From assembly GCA_044892505.1 (NCBI GenBank), contig CM097882.1:283978896-284024000 (forward strand): DNA of 45,105 nt, read 5' to 3'. This stretch comes from Schmidtea nova. Its lineage: Eukaryota. The translations under genes and the position numbers were made by a program. The notes beneath the pieces were generated by a model. It had not been told where the DNA came from. It saw nothing but the letters and a program-made list of their open reading frames with translations, and searched no databases. Of the stretch, positions 9,592 through 45,105 are shown in pieces; position 1 is the stretch's first letter; each line of letters starts with the position of its first letter.

Positions 9592-9772
9592 CTTTAAACT
9601 TTAAATTTGTCTTGACATCCGACGTTTAAGTAATAAAGTTACAAGAATACTCAACATATTTATGTTGCATAAGCCTTTAAACTTTAAAGGCTTATGCAAC
9701 ATAAATATGTTGAGTATTCTTGTAATTTTATTACTTAAATGTCGGATGTCAAGACAAATTTAAAGTTTAAAG
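9592..9772. repeat. Near-perfect palindrome, 90-bp arms, 1-nt spacer
   Basis: 9592-9681 versus 9683-9772; two mismatches, both G:T. Confidence 0.95.
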
Positions 9773-12700: not shown

Positions 12701-13490
12701 ACACAATGGACGAAGAGTCAGACGATTCAAAATTATCAATGGAGTTCTCGGCTACAACACATGAAGAACTGGTTGATGGAATAGATTCAATAGAGTGCAA
12801 TTCACTGACTGAAGGAATGTTTGGAGATGGTTTAAAAAAAGCGAAGATGTTCGTTTGGATAGACATTACAAGAACACCTGAGCTAATTCAATCACAACTG
12901 AATGCTGGAAAATGAATGCACGGACAGCGGAAAAATAACTAGTGCGTGGTTCACAAACTGGTTGTAGGCGAGTCTACTGTTTAAAAATGGCCAAAGGAGG
13001 GTATGCTTCAACACTTAAACGAGGGAGAGGAGACAGTAGACTGAATTCAAGCACATTTTATTCACACGCATGGGTTCCATTCCCGTATTAGATAATTTTA
13101 TAAACTACACTATGTATTCATAAAAACGTTGTATGTAAACCTAATTCCATAATCAGCAAATTCTATTCACACCTTCACACAGACAAAAGTATCAGAATTA
13201 CGTGTGTAGGGGTTATCAATCGCTAGCGTGTGTATACATTGTATTAAATATTTTGACAGGACTGTCTGTGATAGGCGAAAGACAAACAACTCTCTCCATA
13301 AGGTCTGTTTTGCTTATAGATGAGGCGCCTCACTATCATGTGATTGAAATAAGGACCAATCGCGTGAAATTAACAGGAGAGCAATGTCAATATGATAAGA
13401 AATTAACGCTAATTCAAAATTTCTAACAAAAACAGTACATTTTATCACTGCACATCTTTCATTTATCACTGCACGTTAAAATAAGGCCTG
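9773..13490 (-). mobile_element. Full-length hAT DNA transposon (ZNF862-like transposase)
   Basis: 15-bp TIR CAGGCCTTATTTTAA / TTAAAATAAGGCCTG; 8-bp TSD GTTTAAAG (9765-9772 and 13491-13498); subterminal TTATCACTGCAC repeats. Confidence 0.95.
10485..12866 (-). pseudogene. hAT transposase, about 793 codons in one frame with 4 internal stops
   Basis: ORFs 12330-12866, 11154-12290, 10830-11048 and 10485-10811 share a frame. Motifs: RFDSSMDR, LSTDGE, VCGVHSSALA, EVRW, HSADCERIIS (hATC). Confidence 0.92.
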
Positions 13491-17386: not shown

Positions 17387-17822
17387 TGTAGTGCCTCCGT
17401 CATATATATCTTTATATTGTAATATATTAAAAATATTCATTTATGTTAAATTTAACATATTCTTATATATAAAAACACAAGTGAGTTGTTTAAATATCCA
17501 AATAAAACCAGCAGAATTTAAAATTAGAAGAAAAAAAGGACTTGAAGCATTTCAAAGCAGAATTTAAAATTAGAGGAAAAAAAGCACTTGCAGCATTTCA
17601 AAGTAGAAGAAAATAAATCACTTTAAGAAAATGTATTCAGATATAGATTTGCAACCTGCTACTGTTGTAGCGCTACAAAAACTCAGATGTTTTCTCACGG
17701 ATACTAAAAAGAACAAGCAATGTTACTTAAAAATAAATATTTTATTAGTGTTTATTTTGTATTTTATCTTTTATCCGATTATGACAAATACAAAACGGGG
17801 TATAGAAATACAGAGCCCCACA
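17387..17822 (+). repeat. 5' LTR (436 bp, TG...CA)
   Basis: TGTAGTG...CCCCACA; direct repeat of 20176-20602; contains an internal ~46-bp duplication. Confidence 0.92.
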
Positions 17823-17824
17823 AT

Positions 17825-17835
17825 TGGTGTCAGAA
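17825..17835 (+). promoter_or_regulatory. Primer binding site, tRNA-Leu type
   Basis: TGGTGTCAGAA, 2 nt after the LTR-terminal CA. Confidence 0.85.
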
Positions 17836-18431
17836 CTGACCACTACAGTCCAATGTTTCAATCACATCAAAATTCTATGCCTCCTCAATCAACGATTAAT
17901 CAACAGCCTGACCACTTTGTAATCGTAGCTTCGCAATACCAATCATATTCTGAGCAACAATTGCCCATTAATACTACCAATAACGGACCTATACAACGGA
18001 AAGTTCACCAAATAAGTTATCAACATTGAGCAGCATCAAATGTTAATGCACAAATGCAATTCCAACATCAACATCAAGTATCTCAACCGATTAGTCCTAG
18101 GAGTACAGATGCTTCTAATCACCAAAGCGACATGTCAGAAATTAACTATACCACAGCAGTGTCAATTTCAAGCAACCAACCAAATTATATTATGTTTCCC
18201 GATGCAAACCACATGGCAATATGTATTATTTATTATATTTATATTGAAAAAATTTTATTTATATTTATCATAATTTTATATATATTATTTAATAAATTTA
18301 TTTATAAAATTACCCTTCCCGTTTTCTCTATTCCGCCTTTCTTTCGCCCTTTAACTCCAAAACACACTCATAATCCTAACCTAGATCCAATACACGATAA
18401 CGATTCTTTCGCCAAAACCACACCGATACTA

Positions 18432-19511
18432 CCAGCCTATATCCTCACGCGTTTTAATAACAGAATGCGGGAAATCGCCGTTACTTCCGATATACACGCC
18501 GACATTGACACATCGCTTCGCATTGACAAGACCTCATTCTACGTGTCGTGCAATGGTTCTTTAGTCTCCTCTTCTACCCAGCTACAGTCTAATTCAATCT
18601 TGGACATCAACTGTCACATCCTAGGAGGTGGTAGAATCACAACAGAGCTATTTTTCTCATCCGGATTCCGCTCTATTCTGTTTTTTCTGGACCCGGGCGG
18701 TACACCTTCTTCGTGGTTTCGGATCTTTGAAGCGCGTACGTCTTCCTCTCCAAATTCACGAGCAGATTACCTCCTCGACAGTTTACTTGCCGAATTGATA
18801 GCCGAACTAGCCCCGAAAATTGCTGATGCTCTTGACGCAGGAAATCTATACGAAAGCTTAAAAAATCTAATTACGACCAAACACACTTCTTCACAGACCC
18901 AAGCTCTAAAAAAACTATTGGCGCCACAGATTTACTCAGGCCAACAGCCTAGTCTCTTTTTGGGAGAGATAGTTCGTTCAAACGATGCGGCAGTATCCGG
19001 TCTTTCTAAAAACGCACCTATTCCTTTCTGCACTCCCCTACCATCTACAAACTTTTCTGGCATTGGTTGACTCTGAAGATCCATATCACCTTGCGAAGAT
19101 TGCTGACAGCATTCACGCACTGCAACCATATAAACCCAGCGGAGATATTTACGCAGCACCTCCACTACCCCACCGTTAACGCAGCGCATACACTTCATAA
19201 CCCTTTCCTCGGACAGTTGAAAGATATCCCAACGACACTGCTCCATCACATGATGCACAGCATCCCAATCACCTACCAACAACACGCGCACAAAACATGC
19301 AATCAATAACAGCGCCACACTAATCTGTTTTTATCATAGCAGATTTAGACAGCATGCACAAAAATGCTGCATCGGTTGCATGTCTGAATTTCGCCCCCAT
19401 CAAAGTCCAACCATTCCAGTTTGTATCCATCATCATCTCTTCAAGAACGATGCCAGATCGTGCCTTGACGGATGCACATGGCGCACAAGCGACTACCATC
19501 CACCAAAACAC
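18432..19511 (+). pseudogene. Ubiquitin-like domain fused to Gag with two C-x2-H-x8/9-C-x3-C fingers (frameshifted)
   Basis: Ubl ..SFYVSCNGSLV..LQSNSILDINCHILGG (18432-18629); Gag PSSWFRIFEAR..QQPSLFL; FLSALPYHLQTFLA..LAKIADSI (18985 frame); ICFYHSRFRQHAQKCCIGC and VCIHHHLFKNDARSCLDGC. Confidence 0.8.
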
Positions 19512-20163
19512 TAATCAAGTCATCGGATATTTTTGGACGCTACGATAACTCCCCGCCAGTGAATTGCCTTTCTCACAGCCAACCATGTCCAACGCATACA
19601 CGATTAACTCCGTCAGCTAGCATCATATCAGAAACAACCACTACTCTCTCCACAGTACTATTTTCTCACACAACACCACCACCAATACCAATACAGGAAC
19701 CAACACTAGAACAAGAACCAACCAGCTCACCTCGCACAACACTTGCAAGAGCACCAACAAAAACTTCACCCAGCACACCGCACACAGCACCATCCGCATC
19801 ACTACCAGCTGCAGCATCCATAATACCATCAAAAACACCACTAACAATACCACAAGCATCGCTAACCTTTTCCGACAACGAAACCCACACAGACTACACA
19901 CACATTCTACCACAGTCGCCACAAACCGCATTTCCGTCATTGCTCTCACCAACACTTATCGTCACGATGGAAACATACTCGTCCTTTTCAATACTACCTA
20001 CCGCTTTCATCGCAGACACATCTTGCTCATCATCCGCCCTAGCCGCGAAAGGTACACACAAACTGCTCTCCGGTATAAGAACAATTGAGTTTCGTCCTCC
20101 AAGTATTTTTTACTCCGACCCTTGAATACCGTTTTGTCTTTTCCCATACGCTTGGCGTACTTC

Positions 20164-20171
20164 GGCGGGGA
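20164..20171 (+). promoter_or_regulatory. Short polypurine tract
   Basis: GGCGGGGA just upstream of the 3' LTR. Confidence 0.6.
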
Positions 20172-20175
20172 CTAT

Positions 20176-20602
20176 TGTAGTGCATCCGTCATATATATCT
20201 TTATATTGTAATATATTAAAAATATTCATATATATTAAATTAAACATATGCTTATATATAAAAAACAAGTGAGTTGTTTAAATATCCAAATAAAACCAGC
20301 AAAATTTAAAATTAGAAGAAAAAAGCACTTGAAGCATTTCAAAGCAGAATTTAAAATTAGAGGAAAAAAAAGCACTTGCAGCATTTCAAAGTAGAAGAAA
20401 ATAAAGCACTTTAAGAAAATGTATTCAGATATAGATTTACAACCTGCTACTGTTGTAGCGCTACAAAAACTCAGATGTTTTCTCACGGATACTAAAAAGA
20501 ACAAGCAATGTTACTTAAAAATAAATATTTTATTAGTGTTTATTTTGTATTTTATCTTTTATCCGATTAAGACAAATACAGAACGGGGTACAGAAATACA
20601 GA
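20176..20602 (+). repeat. 3' LTR (last ~8-10 bp missing)
   Basis: Aligns to the 5' LTR with roughly 15 differences by eye; diverges before the terminal GCCCCACA, so no TSD can be checked. Confidence 0.9.
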
Positions 20603-30659: not shown

Positions 30660-31570
30660 CATGAACATTACAAATAATATTAAGAAAATTATTTTTTAAA
30701 AATATGAAACAGACAAAACAGTAAAATAAATATCTAATAAATATCTAATATACCTTAAGTCTGCCACGGTCTCGGAAATAATACAAAAAGTATAAAGAAA
30801 CAGGAACAATAGAAACTTAAATACACAGCTATAATAGGAGAAAGATTTCCAATGCTGAATCAGATGAGAAAATAAAGGAAAGAATTGAAGAAGACATTTT
30901 TGCTACATTAAATGAAATCAAGACGATTCTAGCCACTAGTCATAACACAAACGTATCCACATCAACACTACACAGCACAATTAAATTATTCGAATATAGT
31001 TTTGAACGTATCACTTAATACTGGCGAGGCGTAACGTATAAGATCATATAGAAATGTATAAGAAATGGACCAAACTAAATTAGTTTTTACAGATGAAATG
31101 GGTGTGAATTGTTCAATGAGAAGAAGATTTGGGAGATCATTACTAGGTACAGCACCACGTAAAACAGTAACATCCATAGGAAGTAAAAATATATCAATAT
31201 CTGCAGCTATAACAAAGGATGAACTACTATATTTTAAAACAAATGTTGGTGCATTTAATTCTGACTCTTTTTCACTAATTATAAACGATTTGATGGATAA
31301 ATTAAGATTCAAGAATCTGACAGGGATGACGATTATTTGTGACAATGTACTTTTTCGTAAGTCCGAATCAATACAAAACCTTATTCGGGAAAATGAACAT
31401 ACATTACTTTTCTTGCCTCCGTACAGTCCTCAACTGAATCCTATAGAACAGATATTTGGCGTTTGGAAAGAAAAAATAAGATCAAGAAATTGTTAGAATC
31501 AGGATTCTTTGTTTGGAGCCATTGAAACAACTTCAAATCTAATAACAAGGGATCATTGCATCTCCTTTTA
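30660..31570 (+). pseudogene. Tc1/IS630-like DD34E transposase (degenerate 5' half, intact DDE core 31065-31496)
   Basis: LVFTDEMG..IICDN..FLPPYSPQLNPIE; 34 residues between the second D and E. Confidence 0.9.
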
Positions 31571-32197
31571 TTGATTTTCGTTAATAATAGCGATTACAAA
31601 ACAGCGATTACAAAGATAGCGAGTAGTTAAAAATAGCGACCACAAAACAAAGATTTAATATAAATTTTTCAATTTAGATAAATAGTATATAATTGACAAA
31701 GTTATATCACATAAACTGTATTTCAATGAAAAATTCATTCGAAAATCAAAAATGATATGATTTTATAAAACTATAATCAAAATTTATTAATTAAAAATTA
31801 AAAAATAACAATATAAAATAATAATAATAATAATGATAATAATAGTGTTGGGCCCACCAATTGGTCTAAAAAGACAAAAATATTGTACTAATTCAAACAA
31901 TAAATACAAATAATAACCACAAAAACATTCGAAAAACCTAAATTAAAAAATCAAAATAAAATAATAAATAATAATTACTAAATTTCCAGCAAAGGAAGAA
32001 AATCAAATTGACACGGGAACGAGCAGTATGGGGATCTGAAATAAGAAAATTACAAATAAAATCAAATAAAAGTACAATTAATTGGTTAATTACTTGAAAA
32101 AATCAGGACCACCCAGCGAGAAATCTGAACCGGAAATTTAAAATGGTTTATATTAAAATAAAATAACAAAATTACTTTGATGGACGGCCTGATCCTG

Positions 32198-32232
32198 ATT
32201 GGTCAATCTGACCAACTGGATCAGTATAAATA
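32198..32232 (+). promoter_or_regulatory. Candidate LTR promoter: inverted CCAAT plus TATA box
   Basis: ATTGG at 32198-32202; TATAAATA at 32225-32232. Confidence 0.5.
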
Positions 32233-33150
32233 CCGATCCAAAAATCATACAGATACCCTAAAAACTTAGCTACCGAACTGATCTATAACAGTCAGTTACA
32301 TCAACTTTGATACGACAAATATTGTGTAAAATTTTGGAAGCGCTGCATCTTGGATTTAAAGAGTAAATTTTGTTGTATTGTATTTGAACTAATTTTATGA
32401 TATGTTTTACATGATTCCCATTCATTTCATTTCATTTAATATAATTTATTACTATTAATTGCTCTATTTTCTTATGCTATTATTTTATGATATGATAAAT
32501 ATACTTCCTCAGTAGCTCACGCTGCGAGGGAGTAAGCCGTAAATGTGGGATTTCACCGTTCCACAAGATGGTGAGCAGAGTTTCTATTGGTATTTTTTTA
32601 TTTAATTTAATTTTTTATCAGAGGTTTAACTTTACAGTAAAGTTGTACAGGGACAAGAACACGGGTAAAATTAGTAGACAGTGTTTAACATTAGTTAATT
32701 AACGTTCGATCAGACAGGAGAGAATAAACTACAGTATCAATTATCATGTCAACTAAATCGATTTCGCATATGCACACGATTTTTTCGAATCCACATAGCT
32801 GATCGAAATAATGTCCGGACACACCGAGACGATTTCGACATTTCAACGATAGTTTTAATTAAGATATAAATAACAACATAATCAGATTGACACTACTGAT
32901 TGAATAACTAAAACCGTAACCTGATCGCTGTAAATAGCGCAGGTGATAATATGTAAATTTTTAATAAACGTATCCCGATCGCTGTATATAGCGACGGTGT
33001 TAATTGAATAGCTTAGAAAATTTTTTTTTTATTCCTCCTTTTCATATTTTTTTTGTTTTGTTGATCAACGAGAGGAGCACATTTCATCAGGTCTCACCAA
33101 AATTTGCGGATTCGTCACAGTAAATTTTATTAGCATTATTATTTTCTCAG

Positions 33151-33651
33151 ATGAAATCAACGATACTGGATGAATTTCTAACAACCCAACGTCGTGCGGC
33201 ACGGGACGAAAATCCTCTAATCCGGACGCAACAGAAGAAATTGAAGTCGCTTCCACAGGAACTTCTAAGAACGCTAAATGCGTTGATGTACAAGTGGAGA
33301 CGGGAACTGGGAAAAAAATGTCCATTTTCGATTTGGACCGGTGGATTAGATACCATCATATATCGAGGAGGCCCCGGATGGAAAAGTTCAGACGAAAGAG
33401 ACCCCGAAACGACAGCTCGATTCATCATAGTGTTGACGGACATCGCAGGCAACCCAACGACCGTAATCCACTGGGGATATGTCTCACCGCTCAAGTTGCT
33501 TCGATTTGGTTTGATTCCGAACCACCTACTGAAAACGGACCATGGACGCCCCAAACTAAACTGTTCAATGGCTCACATCCGACGAGATCCAGTCAATCAC
33601 GGGTTGCATATTACCCCCGTTCACGGCCTCAAGCGAAGCGTTTTTCACTAA
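33151..33651 (+). CDS. Intact 166-aa hypothetical accessory protein inside the probable LTR
   Basis: ATG-to-stop ORF, GC-richer than its flanks; no recognisable motif. Confidence 0.55.
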   Translation: MKSTILDEFLTTQRRAARDENPLIRTQQKKLKSLPQELLRTLNALMYKWRRELGKKCPFSIWTGGLDTIIYRGGPGWKSSDERDPETTARFIIVLTDIAGNPTTVIHWGYVSPLKLLRFGLIPNHLLKTDHGRPKLNCSMAHIRRDPVNHGLHITPVHGLKRSVFH

Positions 33652-33803
33652 AAATTCTATTCACATTACTATGAACTAAATGTTTTCTATAAATTAAATG
33701 GTGTTGATCTGTGTTTTGTTTGTTATTAGTTAAATTTCTATCTATTTATTTAATTATACAATCTTTTACACTTGACGGATAATATTAGTCGTTGGTAACA
33801 TAA

Positions 33804-34427
33804 TTGCTGCATCATAAAATAGGTTTGTTATTTAGTATGACAGAAACCAGCCAACAGCGGGAATTGGATAAGGCGTGGAGAATCCGCCGAGCATTAGAAA
33901 AGGAGTTAAATCAAGAGAAAGCATTTCGAGCCAAGGCAGAAGCTCAGATCCAGCATTTACGGACCAGCTGGTTCGCCCCAGCTCGCATGAAGGAGCAGAT
34001 AAGTCGAACGGATAGGGCTCAAAAGACAGCTGACGACTATCGTACCGAATGGGAAGCAACAAAAATTGAGTTGCGCCGATGTCTCCATTCGGTGACGACT
34101 TCTTTTATCGAGTCCGAATTGAGATCACAAATCCGACCTATCACCTACCAGAAATGGGTAGGAGAACAGAAAGTGGCCTGCTCGGTCAGTACGGACACCG
34201 ATGGGCTCGAGACAACAACAGTGCAGAGTCGGGTGGAAACCACCACTGCATCAAACCCCGTCGGAAAAATGAACAAGCGAAAACGAATCGGCTCCAAACG
34301 CCGTCGCCAAAGAAAGCTGTTTTCTCAACAGTTGCAGACACAAGTGACCACTATGGCCGAAATGTCGGAAGCCGAGTGGTTATCCGAGATATTCCCTCCT
34401 GAAGGAATCTTCAAAGAATTTCTGTAG
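33804..34427 (+). CDS. Intact accessory protein: coiled coil, basic NLS, acidic-hydrophobic C-terminus (likely ATG at 33837)
   Basis: RELDKAWRIRRALEKELNQEKAFRAKAEAQIQHL; KRKRIGSKRRRQRK; EMSEAEWLSEIF. Confidence 0.6.
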   Translation: MLHHKIGLLFSMTETSQQRELDKAWRIRRALEKELNQEKAFRAKAEAQIQHLRTSWFAPARMKEQISRTDRAQKTADDYRTEWEATKIELRRCLHSVTTSFIESELRSQIRPITYQKWVGEQKVACSVSTDTDGLETTTVQSRVETTTASNPVGKMNKRKRIGSKRRRQRKLFSQQLQTQVTTMAEMSEAEWLSEIFPPEGIFKEFL

Positions 34428-34917
34428 CAGATAGAAACATAATATGATGTCAGATTTTGGAGTTAATTAAATCTTTGCTCGTTTTGTTTTGTTGTTGTTA
34501 TTTCCTATGTATATTCTTCGATTACATAATTCATATAATTAAATTTACCTTACCCGTCACACAACGAAAGGAGTAGCGTTAAAGAATTAGAATATCATCG
34601 AATTCGTAGTTTCGTTTTGCTTGTTTTTTTTTGTTTTTATGATAAATATAGAACATCACACACACAATGGAACAATAATTGCGTAAGTCCTTCTACGGCC
34701 GCGTGAACCCGTAAACATAAAGGGGGAGTAGTCCTAGCAATAGTGCTCACGTGCCCCTCATTGTTTAACCACCCTGCGCATCCCCAACTTGGTTATCAAG
34801 GGAAATAATCAAGGGCGCTCGAGTGTAACTTACGACTATTTATGCATGATCATGGATGGGAGATCCCTAGCAATCATTAGAATTTTTACCAAACCGTCCA
34901 TGAACCCAGCATAAATT

Positions 34918-34935
34918 TGGGGGCTCAGCCGGGAC
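34918..34935 (+). promoter_or_regulatory. Primer binding site, tRNA-Pro type
   Basis: TGGGGGCTCAGCCGGGAC versus canonical tRNA-Pro PBS TGGGGGCTCGTCCGGGAT (15/18). Confidence 0.85.
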
Positions 34936-35248
34936 TAGCTTCGTTTTATCGGAAAAATGTGAATGCAAAATCTGCAGAGAAGTTTAAAGTGCTCGTGTCG
35001 TGTGAATAAATTCAATAAAAACAGAGAGTTTATAATTAAATCTAAATTCTGAACAAAAATAAACCACAAACACAACAGTAATAAAAGTAAAGTTATAAAA
35101 ATCAAATGCATGTATAAATAATTTGTCGGGACGACAATTTTAGGAAACACGGGGAGAGTAAATAAATATTAAAGATACAAAACGAAACATATTACTACTT
35201 TAAATAAATATTAAAAGACACAAAACGAGACATATTACTACTTTAAAA

Positions 35249-35752
35249 ATGATAAAAACAACAAAGTTAAAACGATTATTTATTCAGCAAATGGAGGAAA
35301 AACTGAAAGAAATCGAAGAATTTCTTAACACAGAAAACGAAACATTAGCAACAATTGGCAAGAAAATAAACCGATTTAGAGAAATTGAATTTCAAGAACC
35401 CACAACACAGACCGAGGAAACAGATGAATTAATAAAGATAACAGAAAGAACAAGTAAAATCGACATAAAAACCCGCTACAAATGGTACAGAGCACGACTA
35501 GAGAATGCGGAGCTAAACATTAGATGCAGACAAATAGAACAACAATTAACCCCAACATACAATCGATGGAGGGCGCAAGGGGTAGAAGCAGCGAAAAAAT
35601 ACCGACAGTGCTATATATGTGAAAACAACGAGATACAAATTATGTTTTTACCTTGCGGACATTTCCGTTTTTGTAAGATCTGTGCCAGCAAGTGTGACCG
35701 GTGTCCGATGTGCAACTTTACTGTGAATGAAAAAATTGTAGTTTATTTGTAA
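35249..35752 (+). CDS. IAP-type C-terminal RING (C3HC4) E3 ligase with N-terminal coiled coil, no BIR
   Basis: CYICENNEIQIMFLPCGHFRFCKICASKCDRCPMCNFTVNEKIVVYL* versus XIAP [46 protein letters not shown] overlaps the stop (35751-35756). Confidence 0.9.
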   Translation: MIKTTKLKRLFIQQMEEKLKEIEEFLNTENETLATIGKKINRFREIEFQEPTTQTEETDELIKITERTSKIDIKTRYKWYRARLENAELNIRCRQIEQQLTPTYNRWRAQGVEAAKKYRQCYICENNEIQIMFLPCGHFRFCKICASKCDRCPMCNFTVNEKIVVYL

Positions 35753-36219
35753 TAAATGTTTAGAGTTGATTAGTAAAATGTCGAATGGTGAATCATGGGA
35801 ACAATCATTGTATTTAAATAATTTTTGAGCTACTACAAAGTAGTCCGGTAAGAATCCACTGGGAGGCACCGATTGATCAACCCATTCAGAGCATATAGAA
35901 AGGGGCCCATCGCAAATGTTGGAAAGTTTTTGTGATGTGATTGATCACCACATCCCGCATTAATAGACCAACGCGATCTTTTTGTATATTTTGGTTGGGG
36001 AGAGAGATAGGGAAATCTTGATGGAGTAAGGCGCGCATAGAAAAATTAATAAAATTTGAAGCAGACTGATCAGAAAATAGTTACGATAAAATAGAAAATG
36101 AATGACGGTATAAAAAGGTGCATAATCAGCTCGCATAGAAGTAGTTATAACTCAGCTGAGAAATTTAAGTCGCTAGCGAAGTTAAGAATTGTGATTAACC
36201 GGTTAAGTAAAGTTATAAA

Positions 36220-36312
36220 GTTATTAGAGTTGTCCCTTGAAACAAAGGGTTATTAGCGGTTTGTCCCTTGAAACAAAGGGTTATTAGCGGTTTGTCCCTT
36301 GAAACAAAGGGT
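36220..36312 (+). repeat. 31-bp tandem repeat, ~3 copies
   Basis: TGTCCCTTGAAACAAAGGGTTATTAGCGGTT at 36231, 36262 and 36293. Confidence 0.95.
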
Positions 36313-36313
36313 T

Positions 36314-36582
36314 GAGGCCAATGAGCCATATTGAATGACCTAGCTAGGCGTTATGGAGAGATATTAAATTGAGGCCAATAGAGCCATGCGAGAGATTAAA
36401 TTGAGGCCAATAGAGCCATATGAGAGATTAAATTGAGGCCAATAGAACCATATGAGAGATTAAATTGAGGCCAATAGAGCCATATGAGAGATTAAATTGA
36501 GGCCAATAGAGCCATATGAGATATTAATTTAAGGCCAATAGAGCCATGTGAGATATTAAAATTGAGGCCAAAAAGAGCCATA
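36314..36582 (+). repeat. 32-bp tandem repeat, 7 copies plus a partial, nearly all with GGCCAAT
   Basis: (G/A)AGGCCAA at 36371, 36403, 36435, 36467, 36499, 36531 and 36564 (last copy CCAAA). Confidence 0.95.
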
Positions 36583-37190
36583 GAGAATTATAGAGATATC
36601 CGGATAATTAGTAACAGAGGGAATATAGGCCATAGTTGTGATCGGCAACGAGATTAAGAATAGTGCGCACTAGTAGTTAAGAAATGCGAGTAAAGCTGAT
36701 TATGCAACCTGAAGTAAAGCATGCAAGGAGAATAATAAAAAATTAGAGCTGACCGGAGAAACCGGCAGACTAGGTAAAACGATAGCTAGCAATGAGTAAT
36801 GAATAGAGATGATAAAATAATGATAAACGAGTCAGAAAGACTCAGGGAATTAGAGCGCTCAAGCGACCAATAATTGGGAAATTGTGGGAAAAGTAATTGA
36901 TTTGTAAAATATAGATAATTATTACGACATAAATAGATAATTGTGACCAGTCTATAGATAATTTAAATAGACTAAAAATAAAGGGAAATCTGGGGATTGG
37001 GAAATAATGAAAACCCGGTAATAATTAATCCCGAAAGAAAGGGAATAAAAGCGCGACGATAACAATAATGTATCGTTGAGGACCTTTGTATTTTAGATAT
37101 ACAAATCAATCAAATCAATCAATCAAGCAAGAAGAATCAGAACACGATAAGAAATAGGACAGGAAAATTGAGTATACAAAAGTAATCCCG

Positions 37191-38570
37191 TTGAGAACAG
37201 GAGTAAAGAGTGTCGTAATAAAGCCAACAGAAAAGAAAGTCGGCAGTGAGAGTAACAAAAAAGACAAAACTAGTACTACCACAAAATCAGCAAAAAAGCA
37301 GAAAGCCGGCAAAGATAACAACAAAAACCCACAAGGGAGTAAAGCGAGGAAGATAATAAGAGACAAATCGATTATCGAAAACGATAAATTGTCAGTAGTA
37401 AGCAACAGCTCAAGTAACAAAGAAAACCAAGCGGAACCCAAGGAGAACCAAACAAGTGAAATAGAAATCGACGAAACTAACAACGATAATATCGAAGAAG
37501 TAGAAAACGAGGTAGAACCAGAGGTAGAAATCAACGAGAGTGATAACGAAAGTATAATATCGGATAACGAAGTAATAAGAGAAACAGAAAGCGACTCAAG
37601 CTCGAGTGAAACAGAAGACGAACATAACAACGAACTAGAAACAAGAGGAAACGAAAGTAAAATAACTCAAGACAGCGGAATTGAAATGGGTGAACCAAGA
37701 GAAGAAATAAAGGATAAATTTTCAGGAGAACCATTTAACGGAGATGCGAGTAAATTAGAAACTTTTCTAAAGGAATTTGGCATATTCGTGGAGGTATGCA
37801 AGTGGAAAGCTGAAACAACAGTAAGCAGAATTCAGTTATATTTGAAAGATAGTGCATTGGACCTATATTTGGAAGCGAAAAATGGTACCAATCCACCTGC
37901 AAATTGGACAGCGATAAAGGATTTTTTCCAACAAACCTTTGGAATAAATAAAGTGCTAAGCGAGGCATTCATAGAATTTTCAATGAGGAAACAGAAGATG
38001 AATGAGTCTAACGCGGTATACGCGAGCGAACTGAAAAAATTAGCAAAATCGGTATTCAAGGATGGGGGTCCAATAAACGAGGAACTAATGGCAGCCATCT
38101 TCATAGGAGGATTAAGAAGACCCGACATAAGAGCGCAAGTGGGATGCCAAGGATGCAAAACCATAGATCAAGCGTTAGAAACAGCTAACCGATTCGAATT
38201 GCACATGATAGGAAGCGAGGGCAGAATTTACTTAGCCATGGACACAGCGCAAACCGAACAAGAGGTAAATCTCAACAATCACATCCCAAATTCGCAACAG
38301 TTAAACCGACCACCCCCTCAACGAAGGAATGAAGGAAATAAAGTGCAGAACTTTGGAAACCAAAACAATTACAACCCTCAAGGACAAACAAAACAATGTA
38401 AAACATGTGGAAAGTTGGGACACTGGCAGCAAGAATGCTATCAAAATTTGAATTGCGGAAAATGTGGGGTCAAAGGACATTCGGAGAGTAGATGTTCTAC
38501 GATAACCTGTTTTAATAGCGGACGACCTGGTCACTACTCAAGAAATTGTGGACAAAAAAGTAATCAGTGA
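37191..38570 (+). CDS. gag: Polyprotein segment 1: acidic N-terminus, Ty3/Gypsy Gag capsid, three CCHC knuckles
   Basis: PFNGDASKLETFL..LYLKDSA..W..IKDFF..KQKMNESNAVY..FIGGL; CKTCGKLGHWQQEC, CGKCGVKGHSESRC, CFNSGRPGHYSRNC (38397-38549); true start codon unresolved. Confidence 0.92.
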   Translation: MRTGVKSVVIKPTEKKVGSESNKKDKTSTTTKSAKKQKAGKDNNKNPQGSKARKIIRDKSIIENDKLSVVSNSSSNKENQAEPKENQTSEIEIDETNNDNIEEVENEVEPEVEINESDNESIISDNEVIRETESDSSSSETEDEHNNELETRGNESKITQDSGIEMGEPREEIKDKFSGEPFNGDASKLETFLKEFGIFVEVCKWKAETTVSRIQLYLKDSALDLYLEAKNGTNPPANWTAIKDFFQQTFGINKVLSEAFIEFSMRKQKMNESNAVYASELKKLAKSVFKDGGPINEELMAAIFIGGLRRPDIRAQVGCQGCKTIDQALETANRFELHMIGSEGRIYLAMDTAQTEQEVNLNNHIPNSQQLNRPPPQRRNEGNKVQNFGNQNNYNPQGQTKQCKTCGKLGHWQQECYQNLNCGKCGVKGHSESRCSTITCFNSGRPGHYSRNCGQKSNQ

Positions 38571-39860
38571 GGAAACTGGCAGAATAATGGAAACCGGCAA
38601 AATTACGGAAATCAAACAAATACCGTAAACCGACAAGATTATGGAAACCAACAAGTCCATAATAACCATAATCAGAACAAAACTACCACCAAAGAAATAC
38701 ATTTGATGCAAGAAGTCCAAAGGTTGACGGAACTTATAAACAACACGACGAGAGGAAATCCACAAACCAATCCACAGCAAATTAGTATGATGAGAAAAAT
38801 AGAAAGCGAAAACGAACGATTGAATCGAGAAAGTCAAGCACTACACGCTCAGGAATGGGCAAGAATACAAAGAGAAGATGAACAAAAACAGCAAGAAAGA
38901 GAGCGACAACCTCTAAGAATTAACATGTTGAGAGCAACAAATCAAACAGATACCCACGAGAAAGAAACCACATTAGAAATAAATTCGAATCCAACCGACA
39001 ATGGAAGTCGAAAAGGAGTAATACAAGACGATAAGGAAGCAGAAAAAGAAATAGAAAAGGAAGTAGAAACTGAGATAAACCAGGAAGAGAGGAGGAAAAT
39101 TTGGAAAAAAGGAATGATGGTAATCATGCCCAACAACCATATGTTTCGATTCCAATATAACACAAAAGAAGAGGTGGCAATACTGTTTAACAAAGTAAAC
39201 CAAATGGTTCCAGGAGTAACAAAACTGCCCAGAGAAGCGTTCCTACAAATAGACGGTGCGCCAGAAGTAAAGTTGAAATTAACGGATATATGGGAAAACA
39301 TGGGAGTAGTAGAAACAAAAAGAAACGTGATGATTATCAAAGAAATAGAACCAGAGAAAATCCCAGCACCAGTGCGTCACGAAACCCGAATCAGTCGAAT
39401 ATTTAAAGGAAAAATGATAAGAAGACGTTTGAAAGAGATAGACGAGTTGGAGAAGAAAATGAGAAAAGTCGAAGTAATAGAGGACAAGAGTGAACCAACA
39501 CCAGAGATTGACAAAAACGAACCAGAACGAACGGAGAATATACAGGGGGAAACGAACCAAATAGCACACATTAATATGTTAAGAAATACCACCAGAGAGT
39601 TTTCCGATGAGGAAGGAGATAGCGATATCAGTAGCCTAGCAGGAGACATATTAAACGAACCCGAAGACGAAAATAAAGAGAGAGAAGTAATAACGACCTC
39701 AGAACCTACACAGATAAAAGTAGATGAAATCCAGAAATTACTAGATAACTCGCTAGACGTAATATATAACGAAGAGTTCATGGACAAGAAACAATACCGG
39801 AAATTCATGAAAGCATTATTACAAATGAACTACAAAGAATGGTTACAAGACCGGAAGTAG
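38571..39860 (+). CDS. Polyprotein segment 2 (in frame with Gag after TGA): N/Q-rich, coiled coil, possible Ubl, acidic
   Basis: 38703-37191 is divisible by 3 and the frame is open from 38571; beta-grasp-like MVIMPNNHMFRFQYNTKEEVAILFNKV..LTDIWENMGV (39111-39338). Confidence 0.75.
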   Translation, partial: GNWQNNGNRQNYGNQTNTVNRQDYGNQQVHNNHNQNKTTTKEIHLMQEVQRLTELINNTTRGNPQTNPQQISMMRKIESENERLNRESQALHAQEWARIQREDEQKQQERERQPLRINMLRATNQTDTHEKETTLEINSNPTDNGSRKGVIQDDKEAEKEIEKEVETEINQEERRKIWKKGMMVIMPNNHMFRFQYNTKEEVAILFNKVNQMVPGVTKLPREAFLQIDGAPEVKLKLTDIWENMGVVETKRNVMIIKEIEPEKIPAPVRHETRISRIFKGKMIRRRLKEIDELEKKMRKVEVIEDKSEPTPEIDKNEPERTENIQGETNQIAHINMLRNTTREFSDEEGDSDISSLAGDILNEPEDENKEREVITTSEPTQIKVDEIQKLLDNSLDVIYNEEFMDKKQYRKFMKALLQMNYKEWLQDRK

Positions 39861-42040
39861 ACATGTTAAATCGATACGTAGGGAAATTAATAGAGGAACC
39901 ACTCCTCAATTACACCATCTCAATAATAATAAATACATCTACACCAAGAATCTGGATCAAAACTCCATTTACAGACGATATCTACAGATGGGTAGAGGAC
40001 AGGCTAGGTAGTTCATATAAAAACAAATTCATCTATTCGCAGAATAGACTCGTAAAGAAAAGAACGCATTTAGTAGAAACAGGTATATGGCCAGGAGAAG
40101 TAACCCTGTTATCAATATGTGATGAAAAGGAAGGAGAGAACCTACAAGAAGTTGCAAAGGAAGCAAACACGTGCTTTGAAAGGAGAATAAAACCACGGTT
40201 AGAATACGAGAAAGGACGAGTCTTACGAAAGAATCTAAATTCCCTGATAGAACAAATCATACCACAAGTCAAAAAACATAGAAAGGAGTTAATGCGAAGC
40301 GAATACGAGAAGCTGAAACGATGCATCGAGTGCATACGTGACACAAGTCACACGAGATGGTCACAGATCTCACACGACAAATTAATCGCAAAAATGGGAA
40401 AAACAATGTTCAGACAAGGGAAAATAACGGATCTAAAAATTTCAGTAGAGTTACCTAATGAGGACACCAAAGAAATTGAAGTGGTAGCAGATTGCACCAT
40501 AAGAGAATTAGTAAAGATCATAAACGAGACACTAGTGCAGACAGAACCAGAAGACGAATGGGAAGACGACATAATCATGAAATATAACGAACATGTATTA
40601 TGGGATCACGATGAGAGACGACTATATAAAATCGGTATATGGGATAATCACCAAACCATCCACGTTATCAGAATGGACGATACACCCAGAGAAACTGCTA
40701 AAGATGAGAAAAAAGAACGGGAACGACAAAAAGAAGTTATACACAAATTACAACAAATAGCAGAAATTTATCGAAATTGGCGGATTTGGCCGGAGTGGGA
40801 AAATGCATTAGAAGAACTCAATCTCAACAGACGAATACGAACATCCGTAGAAAAACAATGGAACGAGCAAGGAAAATGTTGGGAACCAAAAGAAGGGGAA
40901 TATAAAGAAGAATATGAAAGAGGAATGGAAGGTGACTGCGAACCAGAAATGGGAAGGGTTTGCATGGTGACAAGAAAAACTACGCCAATAGATCTAGATG
41001 GACCAGAAACAGCGGCTATATGGTTAGAAAAGGAAAAGCAAAAAACGGAAGAATTAGTCGAAATATTAAAAACTAATGCGCACGGTAAGAGAAAAGTAAT
41101 AAAAGGTCTCGCAGATTTTTTCGTGGTTAATGGAGAAGATGTAACATGCTTGCGTAAAGTAGCAAAAGCAATCGCAGAATATAAAAGAGTCAACGAGTGG
41201 TGTCCGGAACAACTAGACCACGTAATTAGGAAATGGAGAAATCAAGAATACTCGCAAGAAATTCCACAAAAAGTACATTTAAGAATAATATATCCAAACA
41301 AGGATAAGGAAGAATTTTGGGTAGGAATAGCAGAAAAAATTTGAGATATTAAAAAGAAATTGAGATACGAACCACCATTCCATTTACAACACCAAGGACG
41401 ATCACTAGATAACAGTTTGGAAATCTGAATAACGCCAGCACAACTAGATCTCATGAATACCTTGACAGTAGAAGCAATAGCAGGTCAACCATTGAAACGT
41501 AAAGAAGAAAACCATAAACCACACGGAAGTATAAGTACGCCGAGCCCGATGAAATCAGTATTAACGCAAGGGACAAGTTCAAAACGATCTGAGACAACAC
41601 CCAGAGGGAATAGAGAAAGGACTCCACCACAACCATATGACGTGGACGAAATATTAACAGACAGCGACGACATGATAGAAGAGCTAACCAAATTAACAAA
41701 GGAAAAAGACGACAACATTTTCGAAAGAATACAAGAACTACCTACGACAATACAAGTAACCAACACCGGAGAAGCAGAAGTCGAAGATGAAATAATAATA
41801 GAAGAAGTAAACGATTTGACAGAAGACGAAACGAGAGGAGCGAATGTACAATTAACACAAGAAATGGAAAGATGGTTGGAAGAAAGAGCCAACGAACCAA
41901 GAGATGTCACGGAAGAAACCGGACGGGCAACAAGGTTTGTGGAAACAGGTACAGGAATGGATAGACGACCTCGAGGTAGACCCAAGACAGATCCAGCGAA
42001 TGTAGTCATCAGAAATAAGGATGAAAAGAGACAAGATTAA
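39839..42040 (+). CDS. Polyprotein segment 3: ubiquitin-like domains plus acidic linker (two internal TGA)
   Basis: Ubl 40433-40675 LKISVELPNEDTKEIEV..TIRELVKII..IMKYNEHVL..LYKIGI..QTIHVI; weaker Ubls at 39911-40120 and 41273-41455; the frame continues across TGA 41342 and 41426 into ORF 41453. Confidence 0.75.
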
Positions 42041-42520
42041 TGGGAATTATGTTTAAAGAAATTAAATAAAATCGCGGAGATAAAAGAAAAAGAGACAACA
42101 CCAATATGTCAAGGGAAGGAATGGATATCGAAAACAATAATGGAAATATTGGCAATAATTGATCCGGAATTGAGAAAATACTGGCGGATAACTGAGATAA
42201 GCGAAAAGGCGAAGTCATTACACAGCGCAATCGCACCCATCTTACCGGAATTCATAAAAGAGAAAACTAAGTCAAATCATTTAGACTGGCAAGGAACCAC
42301 TACGTTAATAAAGAAACTGACAGAAGGAGCGGAAACAGATAACAAATACGTAATAGCCATTGCATACACTATTTACAACCTACTAACACTGAGTAGAGGT
42401 CGACCAAAACCCACTGCGTTGGAAAGACACATAAAAAATACCGCAAAAATTATAGCCAGAGAAATAGAACCATACATCATTAACAAAGGAGGATGGGAAA
42501 CATTTATCAAAACTAACCAG
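42041..42520 (+). CDS. Polyprotein segment 4: Bcl-2-like domain
   Basis: IKNTAKIIAREIEPYIINKGGWETFIK aligns with Bcl-xL alpha6-BH2 ([28 protein letters not shown]); helical pattern upstream; BH1 NWGR degenerate (DNKY). Confidence 0.7.
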
Positions 42521-42616
42521 AAGAAAACGCAAGCCAAGAACATGAAAAAGAAATTCGAAGAGATATTGGGAGAATTGGAAAAAGAACAAGCAGGAACAGG
42601 AAACGCGAAGTCGTCA

Positions 42617-44545
42617 ATGAACCTGAGTTCAATTATAATGATGATGTTGATATGGATGATTAGCACCGATAGCGCAACAGCGTTCGAAGTATTTGATTGC
42701 GATCAGATGGCATTAGGCGAAAAATATTCATTGCGAGGTACAGAGCAATGTAAGGATGCAACTCCAACGGAACTAAAGACAATACAAAAGAAACAACTCT
42801 ACCATGTGTACCAGGAAGCGGAATTGATAAAAACCATGGTTAGAGAGTGTAAAATTTATAAAACAAGATTCGCTTTCTATTGTGGACACCGTCATTATTC
42901 GGCAATCGTAATGCCAGGAACCGAAAGAGAATCAGTAATGCTGCAAGGAGAAGATTGCGAAAAATTGTTCAGACACGGGGAAATAGAAACAAGAGATAAG
43001 ATAAGATTGAAAGGGAAAGTTGGAGCGATATTACAACAAACCTTATACGTAGCAGCAGCTATCACAGGAGGAGAAGGCTATTGTCAAGGAGAAACCTACC
43101 CTATATTCGGAAAACCAGCAACGAACTTAGTGGTGATTGACACCTACACAGTAGAACTTAAAGCATACGAAGGATTCTTTGACCCAGCGACAGGAGAAAT
43201 GAAAACCCTGCCGATATGTAAGATAGACGCGAATACCTGCCAAACAGGCCTGTCAACTTTAACATACCAAACGCGAGGAAATGAATGTCAATTACAATTT
43301 TTAAAGCAAGCAGAATTCGATGAAATACAAGGAAAGACTTTCCAAGAGGAAGAGGAAGACGAAGTAGCAAGAGGAAAGATTCTCAAAGAAACAGTACAGG
43401 TAGAAGGAAAGATCGAAGCAACACAGGAAAAACAAATCAGAATGAGAAATACCCCAACGGTACTCATCTCCTCGGATGAAGATATAGGAATGAGATTCGT
43501 AAAAGGTAAAACAGCCTTGAAATGCGGAGTATCAATGTTAGAAACCAACTATCCCGGTATCTTCGTATCAAGACAAGATGTACCTAACGCAAAACGTCAA
43601 GTAAACACGAACGATGTTAAACTACACCTCTACGTAAACAATAAAATGGATTTCCTATTTCACAGAGGACAAGCTTCATTACAAAAGGTGTATTACGACC
43701 TTATTAACAACGATTGTATATTGAATAGAGAGATACTGAAAACAAAGTTAGCAGTGGCCATCACCAATCCAGACAGTGCAATGCCACTATTGCCACTAAG
43801 AGAAGGTCATTTTGGAAGAGTAGTTGGTGAAGTTATGTACGTATACATATGCAAAAAGACTAACGCAAAAGTTGCAACGGCGACAAAATTACAACCAGGG
43901 CAATGTACAAACGAATTAGAAATAGAATACAAAGGAAAAGTTAGATACGTACAGCCAGTAAAAAGAATTATAAATCCAGTAAGCTTCGAACCAAACCCTT
44001 TCAATTGCAGCAACGCATACGGACCATTATATCAAAAACCGGATGGAAATTGGGTTATGTTTCCCGCAAGAACGGAAGTACCAGCACCAAGAGAATTCGA
44101 ACTAATGCGATTATCGAAAAGACGAAAATTCAAAGACGTCGATGTAAGCAATATGGGATTTTATAGCGCGAAAGATTTAGAAGCAGCAAGACAAAATATA
44201 CTGTTCCCAGCAAGGAGAGAAGCGGTACTATCCAGTATTGTAACTATAACAGGAGGAACAAATTACCAAGGTGGACCCAATTATGAACTACTTTTATCAC
44301 CAGCTCATTTTAAGAAAGCAACTGAGAATATGATGAAAGCGATGTGGGGAAGGTTTTTGATTTTCGGACAAATGATGGCAGGAATACTTGGTGTCATACT
44401 AATAATACAAATAATACGGGTGGTCATAACACAAATGCTCGCGTGTTTTTATATTTACAAAAGAGAAAAGAAAGTCAACTGGAAATTAGTGTTAGGATTC
44501 TTACCATTTCTGGCTAAAACCATGGTGTTACAGATGAAGAAATAG
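42617..44545 (+). CDS. env: Polyprotein segment 5: internal signal peptide plus chuvirus-like (class III, gB-like) envelope glycoprotein
   Basis: IIMMMLIWMISTDSATA|FEVFDC; LYYDL..C.LNREIL..LA..NPD..GH..VVGEV.Y...C; QP..RII; GFYSAKDL; FPARREAVL; W..FLIFG..AGILGVILII TM; all follow chuviral G patterns. Confidence 0.85.
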   Translation: MNLSSIIMMMLIWMISTDSATAFEVFDCDQMALGEKYSLRGTEQCKDATPTELKTIQKKQLYHVYQEAELIKTMVRECKIYKTRFAFYCGHRHYSAIVMPGTERESVMLQGEDCEKLFRHGEIETRDKIRLKGKVGAILQQTLYVAAAITGGEGYCQGETYPIFGKPATNLVVIDTYTVELKAYEGFFDPATGEMKTLPICKIDANTCQTGLSTLTYQTRGNECQLQFLKQAEFDEIQGKTFQEEEEDEVARGKILKETVQVEGKIEATQEKQIRMRNTPTVLISSDEDIGMRFVKGKTALKCGVSMLETNYPGIFVSRQDVPNAKRQVNTNDVKLHLYVNNKMDFLFHRGQASLQKVYYDLINNDCILNREILKTKLAVAITNPDSAMPLLPLREGHFGRVVGEVMYVYICKKTNAKVATATKLQPGQCTNELEIEYKGKVRYVQPVKRIINPVSFEPNPFNCSNAYGPLYQKPDGNWVMFPARTEVPAPREFELMRLSKRRKFKDVDVSNMGFYSAKDLEAARQNILFPARREAVLSSIVTITGGTNYQGGPNYELLLSPAHFKKATENMMKAMWGRFLIFGQMMAGILGVILIIQIIRVVITQMLACFYIYKREKKVNWKLVLGFLPFLAKTMVLQMKK

Positions 44546-45105
44546 GACGCAAATTTAAAAAGATAATGAATGACGAACAAGCAAGACAACAGCTCAAGAG
44601 AGAAAGAAAAGGTTTATGGGAGAGGATGAAAGGATATAAAACCCAAAATGATTCGAGCGACGACGATGATGACGATGATGACTATAAAGGAGGACAAGTG
44701 TATAAGAACCAAGCACCACAATACATCGAAAAGAACCCAGCTGACGCATGGAAATGTTACGCACCCCCACCAACAATGTATCAAGAACCACTACAAGGAG
44801 GAAGAACGACCACGATGCAAATGATGCCAATGACGAATGTATACCCCATGATACCAGAAGATTATAAAATGAGAAGATGCAGAAGTGTGGATCCACAAGG
44901 AGATACGCATACGATCGCCGTGATGTCATCAAACACAGGTCCAGTACTAACCACGACAATAGAAATTAACGGAAGAGAAATCGAAGCAATAATCGACACT
45001 GGAGCAAATATTTCCGCCATCGACATCAAATGGATACCACAAGAGCAAAGACGGGATATAGAAAGGACGAACGTCCACGTAATTGCATGTAGCAAAGAAA
45101 TTGTA
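44518..45105 (+). CDS. pol: Polyprotein segment 6 (-1 frame): cytoplasmic tail and start of retropepsin; runs off the window
   Basis: Open frame absent from the ORF track (no stop): NHGVTDEEIGRK...GPVLTTTIEINGREIEAIIDTGANISAID; DTG at 44995-45003. Confidence 0.9.

Follow-up and report, generated by a model that had tools for sequence, protein, structure and literature searches.

A small coiled-coil RING protein with no detectable BIR, encoded upstream of gag in a probable Burro-type retroelement of Schmidtea nova

We have analysed a stretch of 45,105 nt from Schmidtea nova (contig CM097882.1 of assembly GCA_044892505.1, positions 283,978,896 to 284,024,000, forward strand), which will be called the window. 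On its + strand it contains, in this order, a candidate LTR, a primer-binding site (PBS), an open reading frame (ORF) coding for a RING protein, tandem repeats, gag, a weak ubiquitin-like stretch, a weak Bcl-2-like stretch, env and a protease. The flanks have a GC content of about 25–30%, and at the candidate LTR it climbs from about 0.27 to 0.41–0.43.

Other repeated or mobile sequences are found elsewhere in the window. Direct repeats of about 430 nt, 2788 nt apart and 94–98% identical, flank an ORF with a weak DUF7041 match (17387–20602), probably a small deleted LTR element. A near-perfect palindrome, with 90-nt arms which are 98% complementary and a 1-nt loop, is located at 9592–9772. Remnants of DNA transposons, including pieces of DDE_1 and DDE_3 transposases detected with Pfam, are found at 4823–5599 (−), 31065–31496 (+) and 11154–12866 (−). 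Some of the frames in these three regions, with no Pfam match, are presumably hAT-like.

We infer the ends of the candidate 5' LTR at 31846..34911 (+): it is about 3.07 kb long, of the form TG...CA, with 6 of the 7 terminal bases complementary. It ends 6 nt before a PBS of the tRNA-Pro type (34918..34935, +), which differs in one base, as the reverse complement, from the 12-nt Pro_UGG_AGG_CGG PBS used for comparison (supplement 1 of PMC13524379). Two ORFs lie inside the candidate LTR, both on the + strand. The first (33151..33651, 166 aa) has no Pfam match and a best PDB match with E 0.63; the second (33837..34427, 196 aa) has a basic NLS-like stretch, recognized by eye, and only sub-threshold Pfam matches. 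Their GC3 is raised (0.49 and 0.53, respectively) and neither fits convincingly in any family. Protein genes within an LTR would be duplicated at either end of the element.

The internal part of the element is retrovirus-like. Between the RING ORF and gag there are two sets of tandem repeats (36230..36590, +), with 2.7 copies of a 31-nt repeat and 7.3 copies of a 32-nt repeat. In the gag frame (37158..38570, +), which is closed by an in-frame stop, the first ATG lies at 37686; the frame matches zf-CCHC (E 1.2e-06), together with Retrotrans_gag below the cut-off (E 7.8e-04). The env frame (42140–44545) codes for a fusion glycoprotein of the gB or class III type (42680..44545, +; PF24664, E 9.6e-71). 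It is followed by a retroviral aspartyl protease, the start of pol (44953..45084, +; Pfam RVP, E 1.2e-05), which is cut by the end of the window; RT, IN and the 3' LTR would lie beyond this end. Two further domains are only possible ones. A stretch at 40436..40612 (+) is weakly ubiquitin-like: Pfam gives SAP18 (E 0.055) and Ubiquitin_4 (E 0.11), and the best PDB match is a ubiquitin variant (E 0.72). Another, directly 5' of env (42140..42550, +), is weakly Bcl-2-like, with Pfam Bcl-2 as its sole family match (E 0.083). All the matches listed by Foldseek for a model of this stretch are chains of the Bcl-2 family (E 0.42–1.4), and no Bcl-2 chain appears among the 50 matches listed in VIA, a wider structural search. 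The AlphaFold models are poor (pLDDT 46 for this stretch, 47 for the RING protein), and the fold searches serve as leads only. The Bcl-2-like stretch contains a GGW which we take to be a BH2-like motif, in frame with env. The ESM Atlas gave no usable match for the Bcl-2-like part or for the N-terminal part of the RING ORF.

This arrangement resembles that of the planarian Burro/GYPSM1 elements, giant gypsy-like LTR elements, as described in PMC6431247: a gag with CCHC knuckles, Ubi/SUMO-like and BCL2-like parts, env ahead of the protease, tandem repeats, and a cargo related to apoptosis and ubiquitin which differs among families. The ubiquitin-like and Bcl-2-like stretches are located at the places expected from that layout, each of them sub-threshold. 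An accessory ORF upstream of gag is also known, in the Burro element of D. tigrina (PMC6431247). There it codes for a MATH protein, while here it codes for a coiled-coil RING protein; no cargo of the MATH, BIR or ankyrin type was detected over the 13 kb of the element inside the window. Gene order and a gB-type env are also common to the GAG-ENV-POL errantiviruses Smed_errantivirus_1-6 (PMC13524379), and, by eye, about 125 residues of our env line up in the same order with that of Smed_errantivirus_5 (supplement 2 of the same work), a Schmidtea element being the nearest among the rows compared. The main text of that work does not refer to RING domains, apoptosis or accessory ORFs, and it gives no PBS for the six Schmidtea elements. 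The order gag, env, protease is found too in nematode and bryozoan elements.

The polyprotein of the present copy is not continuous. There are in-frame stops at 38568, 41342, 41426 and 42038, and the frame changes near 39770–39857 and 44518–44545, which makes six breaks in all. We read them as decay, which is also reported for Burro copies (PMC6431247), and hence we speak of a Burro-type element and assign it to no named family. With this reservation, the RING ORF is very probably an accessory ORF of a giant Ty3/gypsy element of the Burro type.

The RING ORF is located at 35249..35752 (+). It is open over 167 aa and codes for a coiled coil followed by a C3HC4 RING. No ORF of at least 167 aa was found in any of 1000 shuffles of 34918–37157. 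The RING matches zf-C3HC4_3 (aa 119–159, E 3.7e-11 in Pfam) and has all eight zinc ligands (C121, C124, C136, H138, C142, C145, C152 and C155). Its last Cys is followed by a 12-residue tail with a Tyr at +11; RING and tail (C121–C155 and the tail) are coded by 35609..35749 (+). The N-terminal part has coiled-coil heptads at aa 12–43 (35282..35377, +), with 9 of the 10 a/d positions hydrophobic and a score which is equalled in 0 of 300 shuffles. The heptad pattern is less marked in a second predicted helix, where 9 and 35 of 300 shuffles reach the same score. Pfam did not detect a BIR in this ORF or in the other long ORFs of the element, and the BIR motif is absent from the six frames of 31400–45105. 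The initial annotation had described an intact ORF with a coiled coil in place of the BIRs of IAP proteins, and both observations hold. A homodimer prediction for the protein gave a score of 0.02 against a mark of 0.32 and has been counted neither way. A second in-frame ATG, at 35291, is nearer than the first one to the position where the relatives described below start.

We had considered the intact ORF as a sign of selection and have abandoned this idea. Six breaks per about 2650 codons leave a frame of 167 codons open by chance in about two cases out of three, by our estimate. The openness of the RING ORF does not show selection, because the polyprotein of the same copy carries these six breaks.

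The sequence around the ORF contains several signals which might belong to a transcription unit. A TATA-like motif (35113..35120, +) lies 136 nt 5' of the ORF with no intervening ATG, and its presence by chance has a probability of 0.42. A 43-nt tandem duplication (35159..35247, +) stops just 5' of the start codon. At the other end, an AATAAA (35751..35756, +) overlaps the stop codon. Of the 13 AATAAA sites in 34918–37157 (6 upstream of the ORF and 2 within it), this is the one with the GT/TG-richest downstream sequence, a result within chance. The interval from the PBS to the stop holds eight others, and the chance of finding an AATAAA at no more than 101 nt from the stop is 0.17. The 331 nt between the PBS and the ORF (34918–35248) contain six of these sites, 18/kb compared with 2–4/kb elsewhere in the element. 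As 43 ATGs are found between the TATA-like motif of the LTR (32225) and the PBS, scanning from a promoter in the LTR would be disfavoured. The motif at 35113 and the AATAAA at the stop would thus fit a small separate unit, yet both are within chance. The poly(A) signal over the stop had been correctly noticed in the initial annotation; the separate transcription unit deduced from it does not follow, since 13 such sites are found locally and the chance is 0.17, and we no longer consider the signal as proof of such a unit. Rfam gave no match across 31400–38000. Four sequencing runs, all from one study, carry words of the query (shares 0.36–0.41), and no RNA run is found among the matches listed.

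The same annotation placed the gene between PBS and gag as an insertion. The position is right (PBS at 34918, gag at 37158, or 37686 from its first ATG). The insertion is another matter: the ORF has A 0.43 and GC3 0.35, compared with A 0.39–0.40 and GC3 0.35–0.37 in gag and env. The ORF has the same base composition as gag and env, so that no mark of a recent insertion is seen, and we have dropped this proposal.

A protein search against 1.84 billion representatives gave 1502 matches at E≤0.001. The top one, P0001, has 160 aa, is 32% identical to the query (E 3.3e-19) and spans nearly all of it; among the best 150 of the 1502 matches, it is the only one with a clearly related N-terminal part. 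Two other proteins, P0151 and P0157, were added by a cluster look-up and a profile search. The three relatives have 160 aa each, are 31–32% identical to the query and have the whole architecture in common with it. The relationship is not limited to the RING. The N-terminal part alone gives an alignment score of 95, compared with 32±6 in shuffles (0 of 2000 as high) and with 55 for the best of 112 other matches which have a long enough part before the RING, among the matches listed. The eight zinc ligands and the tail Tyr are kept in the query and in the three relatives. Heptads are found also in P0001 and P0157 (0, 0 and 2 of 300 shuffles are as high for the query, P0001 and P0157, respectively), and Pfam detects no BIR in P0001.

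The relatives are known from contigs of 655–1137 nt only. No locus of a relative was confirmed among metagenome contigs (0 of 591 and 0 of 62 pattern matches) or viral contigs (0 of 601 pattern matches), and none was found in phages. A word-indexed protein search found nothing for the RING ORF alone and nothing for the env ORF. The single match found for env (L001, 28 residues) is limited to a short motif located in an unrelated ORF; we have discarded it as due to chance.

The RING ORF might be a non-functional relic, for example an IAP or a Burro BIR+RING protein (B-IAP) stripped of its BIRs, whose frame happens to have remained open while the element decays. The six breaks of the polyprotein make such chance intactness likely, and neither the promoter motif nor the poly(A) motif exceeds what chance would give. 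Against this, there are three full-length relatives, 31–32% identical, with the same BIR-less layout and with heptads, ligands and tail conserved, and we consider a relic very unlikely. Since this layout is conserved in three relatives, the BIR-less form would have been under selection for a long time, which does not imply that the present copy is expressed. Judged from the alignments, the BIR-less form is old and constrained, because full-length relatives at this level of identity keep heptads, ligands and tail: it is a family and not a broken IAP.

Does this RING descend from those of the IAPs? Among solved structures, IAP RINGs are the best matches: cIAP2 (43.2 bits) and XIAP (41.8 bits), with 32 bits for the best non-IAP. 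When a profile is compared with the PDB, IAPs reach 48.3 bits and the best non-IAP 37.3; cIAP2, XIAP and cIAP1 lead CGRRF1 and MYLIP by about 11 bits. MYLIP, CGRRF1 and MEX3C are among the further PDB matches. In PDB entries 3eb5, 4ic3 and 6hpr and in PMC6349121, the RING dimers of cIAP1, cIAP2, XIAP and BIRC7 have in common with our protein a collinear RING with eight zinc ligands, a helix before it and an aromatic tail residue at the F616 position. With the cIAP1 numbering of PMC6349121 the offset is constant at 450 residues (H138/H588, C155/C605, Y166/F616). Our protein differs from them in having no BIR, an Asn (N156) at the linchpin Arg (R606 in cIAP1), a Val (V164) at R614 and a tail which is one residue shorter.

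The tail is not a distinctive feature. Among the matches listed, terminal RINGs with an aromatic residue at +11 occur in 5 of the 6 non-BIR matches that have other domains (seven were labelled and the RING-tail pattern missed one) and in 17 of 29 BIR matches. The same tail mechanism is described for RNF4 and MDM2–MDMX (PMC6349121). The terminal RING had been called IAP-specific, with last residues like those of dimeric IAPs. The tail aromatic (Y166) is indeed kept; being common to non-IAP terminal RINGs, it is not IAP-specific, and we have withdrawn this description.

Pfam scanning covered 106 of the 150 matches listed (43 proteins below 150 aa and P0008 were left out) and found a BIR in 29 of the 106 and none in the other 77. 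In a tree of 50 rows, the query and P0001 appear together (support 99/88) and the nearest labelled row is a gastropod IAP with two BIRs (91/85, unstarred, with a bootstrap which had not settled). The RINGs of BIR proteins do not form one clade in this tree. Only the last RING was taken from matches with BIR or other domains, and the tree left out four long-branch BIR rows, two ankyrin proteins, P0151 and all but five of the unlabelled matches. A tree of 197 rows, built in quick mode and without P0002, is poorly resolved. The reference RINGs were all gathered by their similarity to the query, so the set is biased. AU tests reject neither a grouping with Mind-bomb-like RINGs (p 0.41) nor one with non-BIR coiled-coil proteins (p 0.18). 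BIR and non-BIR profiles, which classify 44 of 48 references correctly, practically tie: the query scores 71.3 with BIR and 69.5 with other non-BIR, P0001 62.4 and 65.4.

These results leave some room for a RING captured from a source other than an IAP: a host ligase of the MYLIP or CGRRF1 type, a protist-type coiled-coil RING, or a small BIR-less helix+RING protein of a large DNA virus. Its target would then be a restriction factor or the proteins of the element, with no link to apoptosis. The tied profiles and the AU tests fit this explanation, as do the matches with MYLIP, CGRRF1 and MEX3C and the 77 of 106 scanned matches with no BIR, among the matches listed. In a viral fold search with the model of pLDDT 47, IAPs appear side by side with other small viral RING proteins, such as BIR-less RINGs of iridoviruses, ascoviruses and giant viruses (E 1e-3 to 4e-2). 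Proteins of large DNA viruses like IIV6 413R and the ascovirus 16.4 kDa RING, as well as MYLIP, CGRRF1 and MEX3C, have a helical N-terminus and/or a terminal C3HC4_3 RING and, by name or description, no BIR. However, no homology with the N-terminal sequence of any of them was detected, no viral relative of this part appeared in the searches of proteins, phages and viral contigs, and the carrier is a retroelement and not a DNA virus. The lead of about 11 bits of the IAPs in the PDB, the two-BIR IAP as nearest neighbour in the tree and the BIR and BCL2-like cargo known in Burro elements (PMC6431247) also argue against a non-IAP source, which we regard as unlikely.

An IAP origin is thus favoured by sequence comparison and unproven. 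The RING phylogeny proposed with the initial annotation gives a gastropod IAP as neighbour and leaves non-IAP placements unrejected; in the same way, the label of IAP-type RING agrees with the best solved matches and goes beyond what the AU tests and profiles support. We prefer to call the RING IAP-like. Membership in the IAP (BIRC) family needs at least one BIR (PMC13159474, PMC3972657). Our protein has a C-terminal C3HC4 RING and an aromatic residue at F616 but, lacking a BIR, does not belong to the family as so defined.

Starting from its established features (position in the element, intact RING with tail aromatic, coiled coil, absence of a BIR, and a full-length BIR-less family), we propose that the product would be a small, dimeric, IAP-like RING ubiquitin ligase, used as an accessory protein by a Burro-type element and probably expressed from a putative short RNA of its own. 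It would dimerise through the RING, the preceding helix and the tail, as in the RINGs of cIAP and XIAP, and the tail tyrosine, acting in trans, would prime E2~ubiquitin. As a part for oligomerisation or substrate binding, the N-terminal helices may stand in for the BIRs. A protein with no BIR would lack the usual mode of binding to caspases or to IAP antagonists, so any effect on cell death would be indirect, through the ubiquitination of partners, and probably pro-survival, alongside the Bcl-2-like cargo. On this mechanism as a whole our opinion is evenly divided.

Several catalytic positions have diverged. The R614 equivalent is Val in the query and in its three relatives; the linchpin is Asn in the query and Asp in the relatives, and in the last CxxC of the relatives the Pro is missing. 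The query retains this Pro and the Ile of loop 1. Such changes may weaken the ligase. They do not show that it is inactive, because XIAP has a Tyr at the linchpin position and 13 of 29 BIR matches have a residue other than Arg there (Asn in 4 of them), among the matches listed.

The protein might nevertheless be a weak or inactive partner RING, related to an active one as MDMX is to MDM2. It would form heterodimers with the RING of a BIR-bearing IAP, which may be a host protein or the B-IAP of a different Burro family, and alter the stability or activity of that ligase. This comes near to the pairing with host IAPs suggested in the initial annotation. The tail aromatic is kept while the linchpin, the R614 equivalent and, in the relatives, the Pro of loop 2 diverge, a pattern which suits this explanation. 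Use of the tail in trans (PMC6349121) and heterodimers of IAP RINGs (PMC3972657) are established. A partner with BIR and RING reportedly exists in Burro1, a B-IAP described as anti-apoptotic and as protecting planarian stem cells (Lee et al. 2026, as cited in PMC13465017). On the other hand, the query keeps the Pro and the loop-1 Ile, the residues found at the linchpin in XIAP and in BIR matches are also opposed to it, and PMC13159474, whose main text names no planarian, reports the loss of RING-bearing host IAPs from the platyhelminths it sampled. All in all, we consider a partner RING of this kind improbable. A broader version would have a second conserved family of Burro accessory proteins, BIR-less RINGs which, by pairing with it, would tune or antagonise either the B-IAP of other families or an IAP-type ligase of the host. 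We find this quite improbable; if true, RING heterodimers would be the means by which co-resident retroelements work with or against each other over the death of stem cells.

The preferred reading, that of an accessory RING ligase, should be compared with Burro1 B-IAP, as described in PMC13465017. Both are IAP-type RINGs on a planarian Burro element. B-IAP has a BIR and reportedly blocks caspase-mediated death, while our protein has a coiled coil and no BIR. The literature searched does not describe any Burro element with a BIR-less coiled-coil RING, which does not mean that none has been described: Lee et al. 2026, Grohme et al. 2018 or their supplements may include one. Since apoptosis cargo has already been published for the giant retroelements of planarians, what is gained here is a variant and not a new principle. 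Most of the surprise is gone, because elements of the Burro type are already known for their apoptosis and ubiquitin cargo.

In summary, an IAP-like RING has been kept with no BIRs in a family which has diverged to about 30% identity. This suggests an independent role for the ligase half. The RING protein is also a small, testable handle on the use of host ubiquitin and death pathways by these giant elements.
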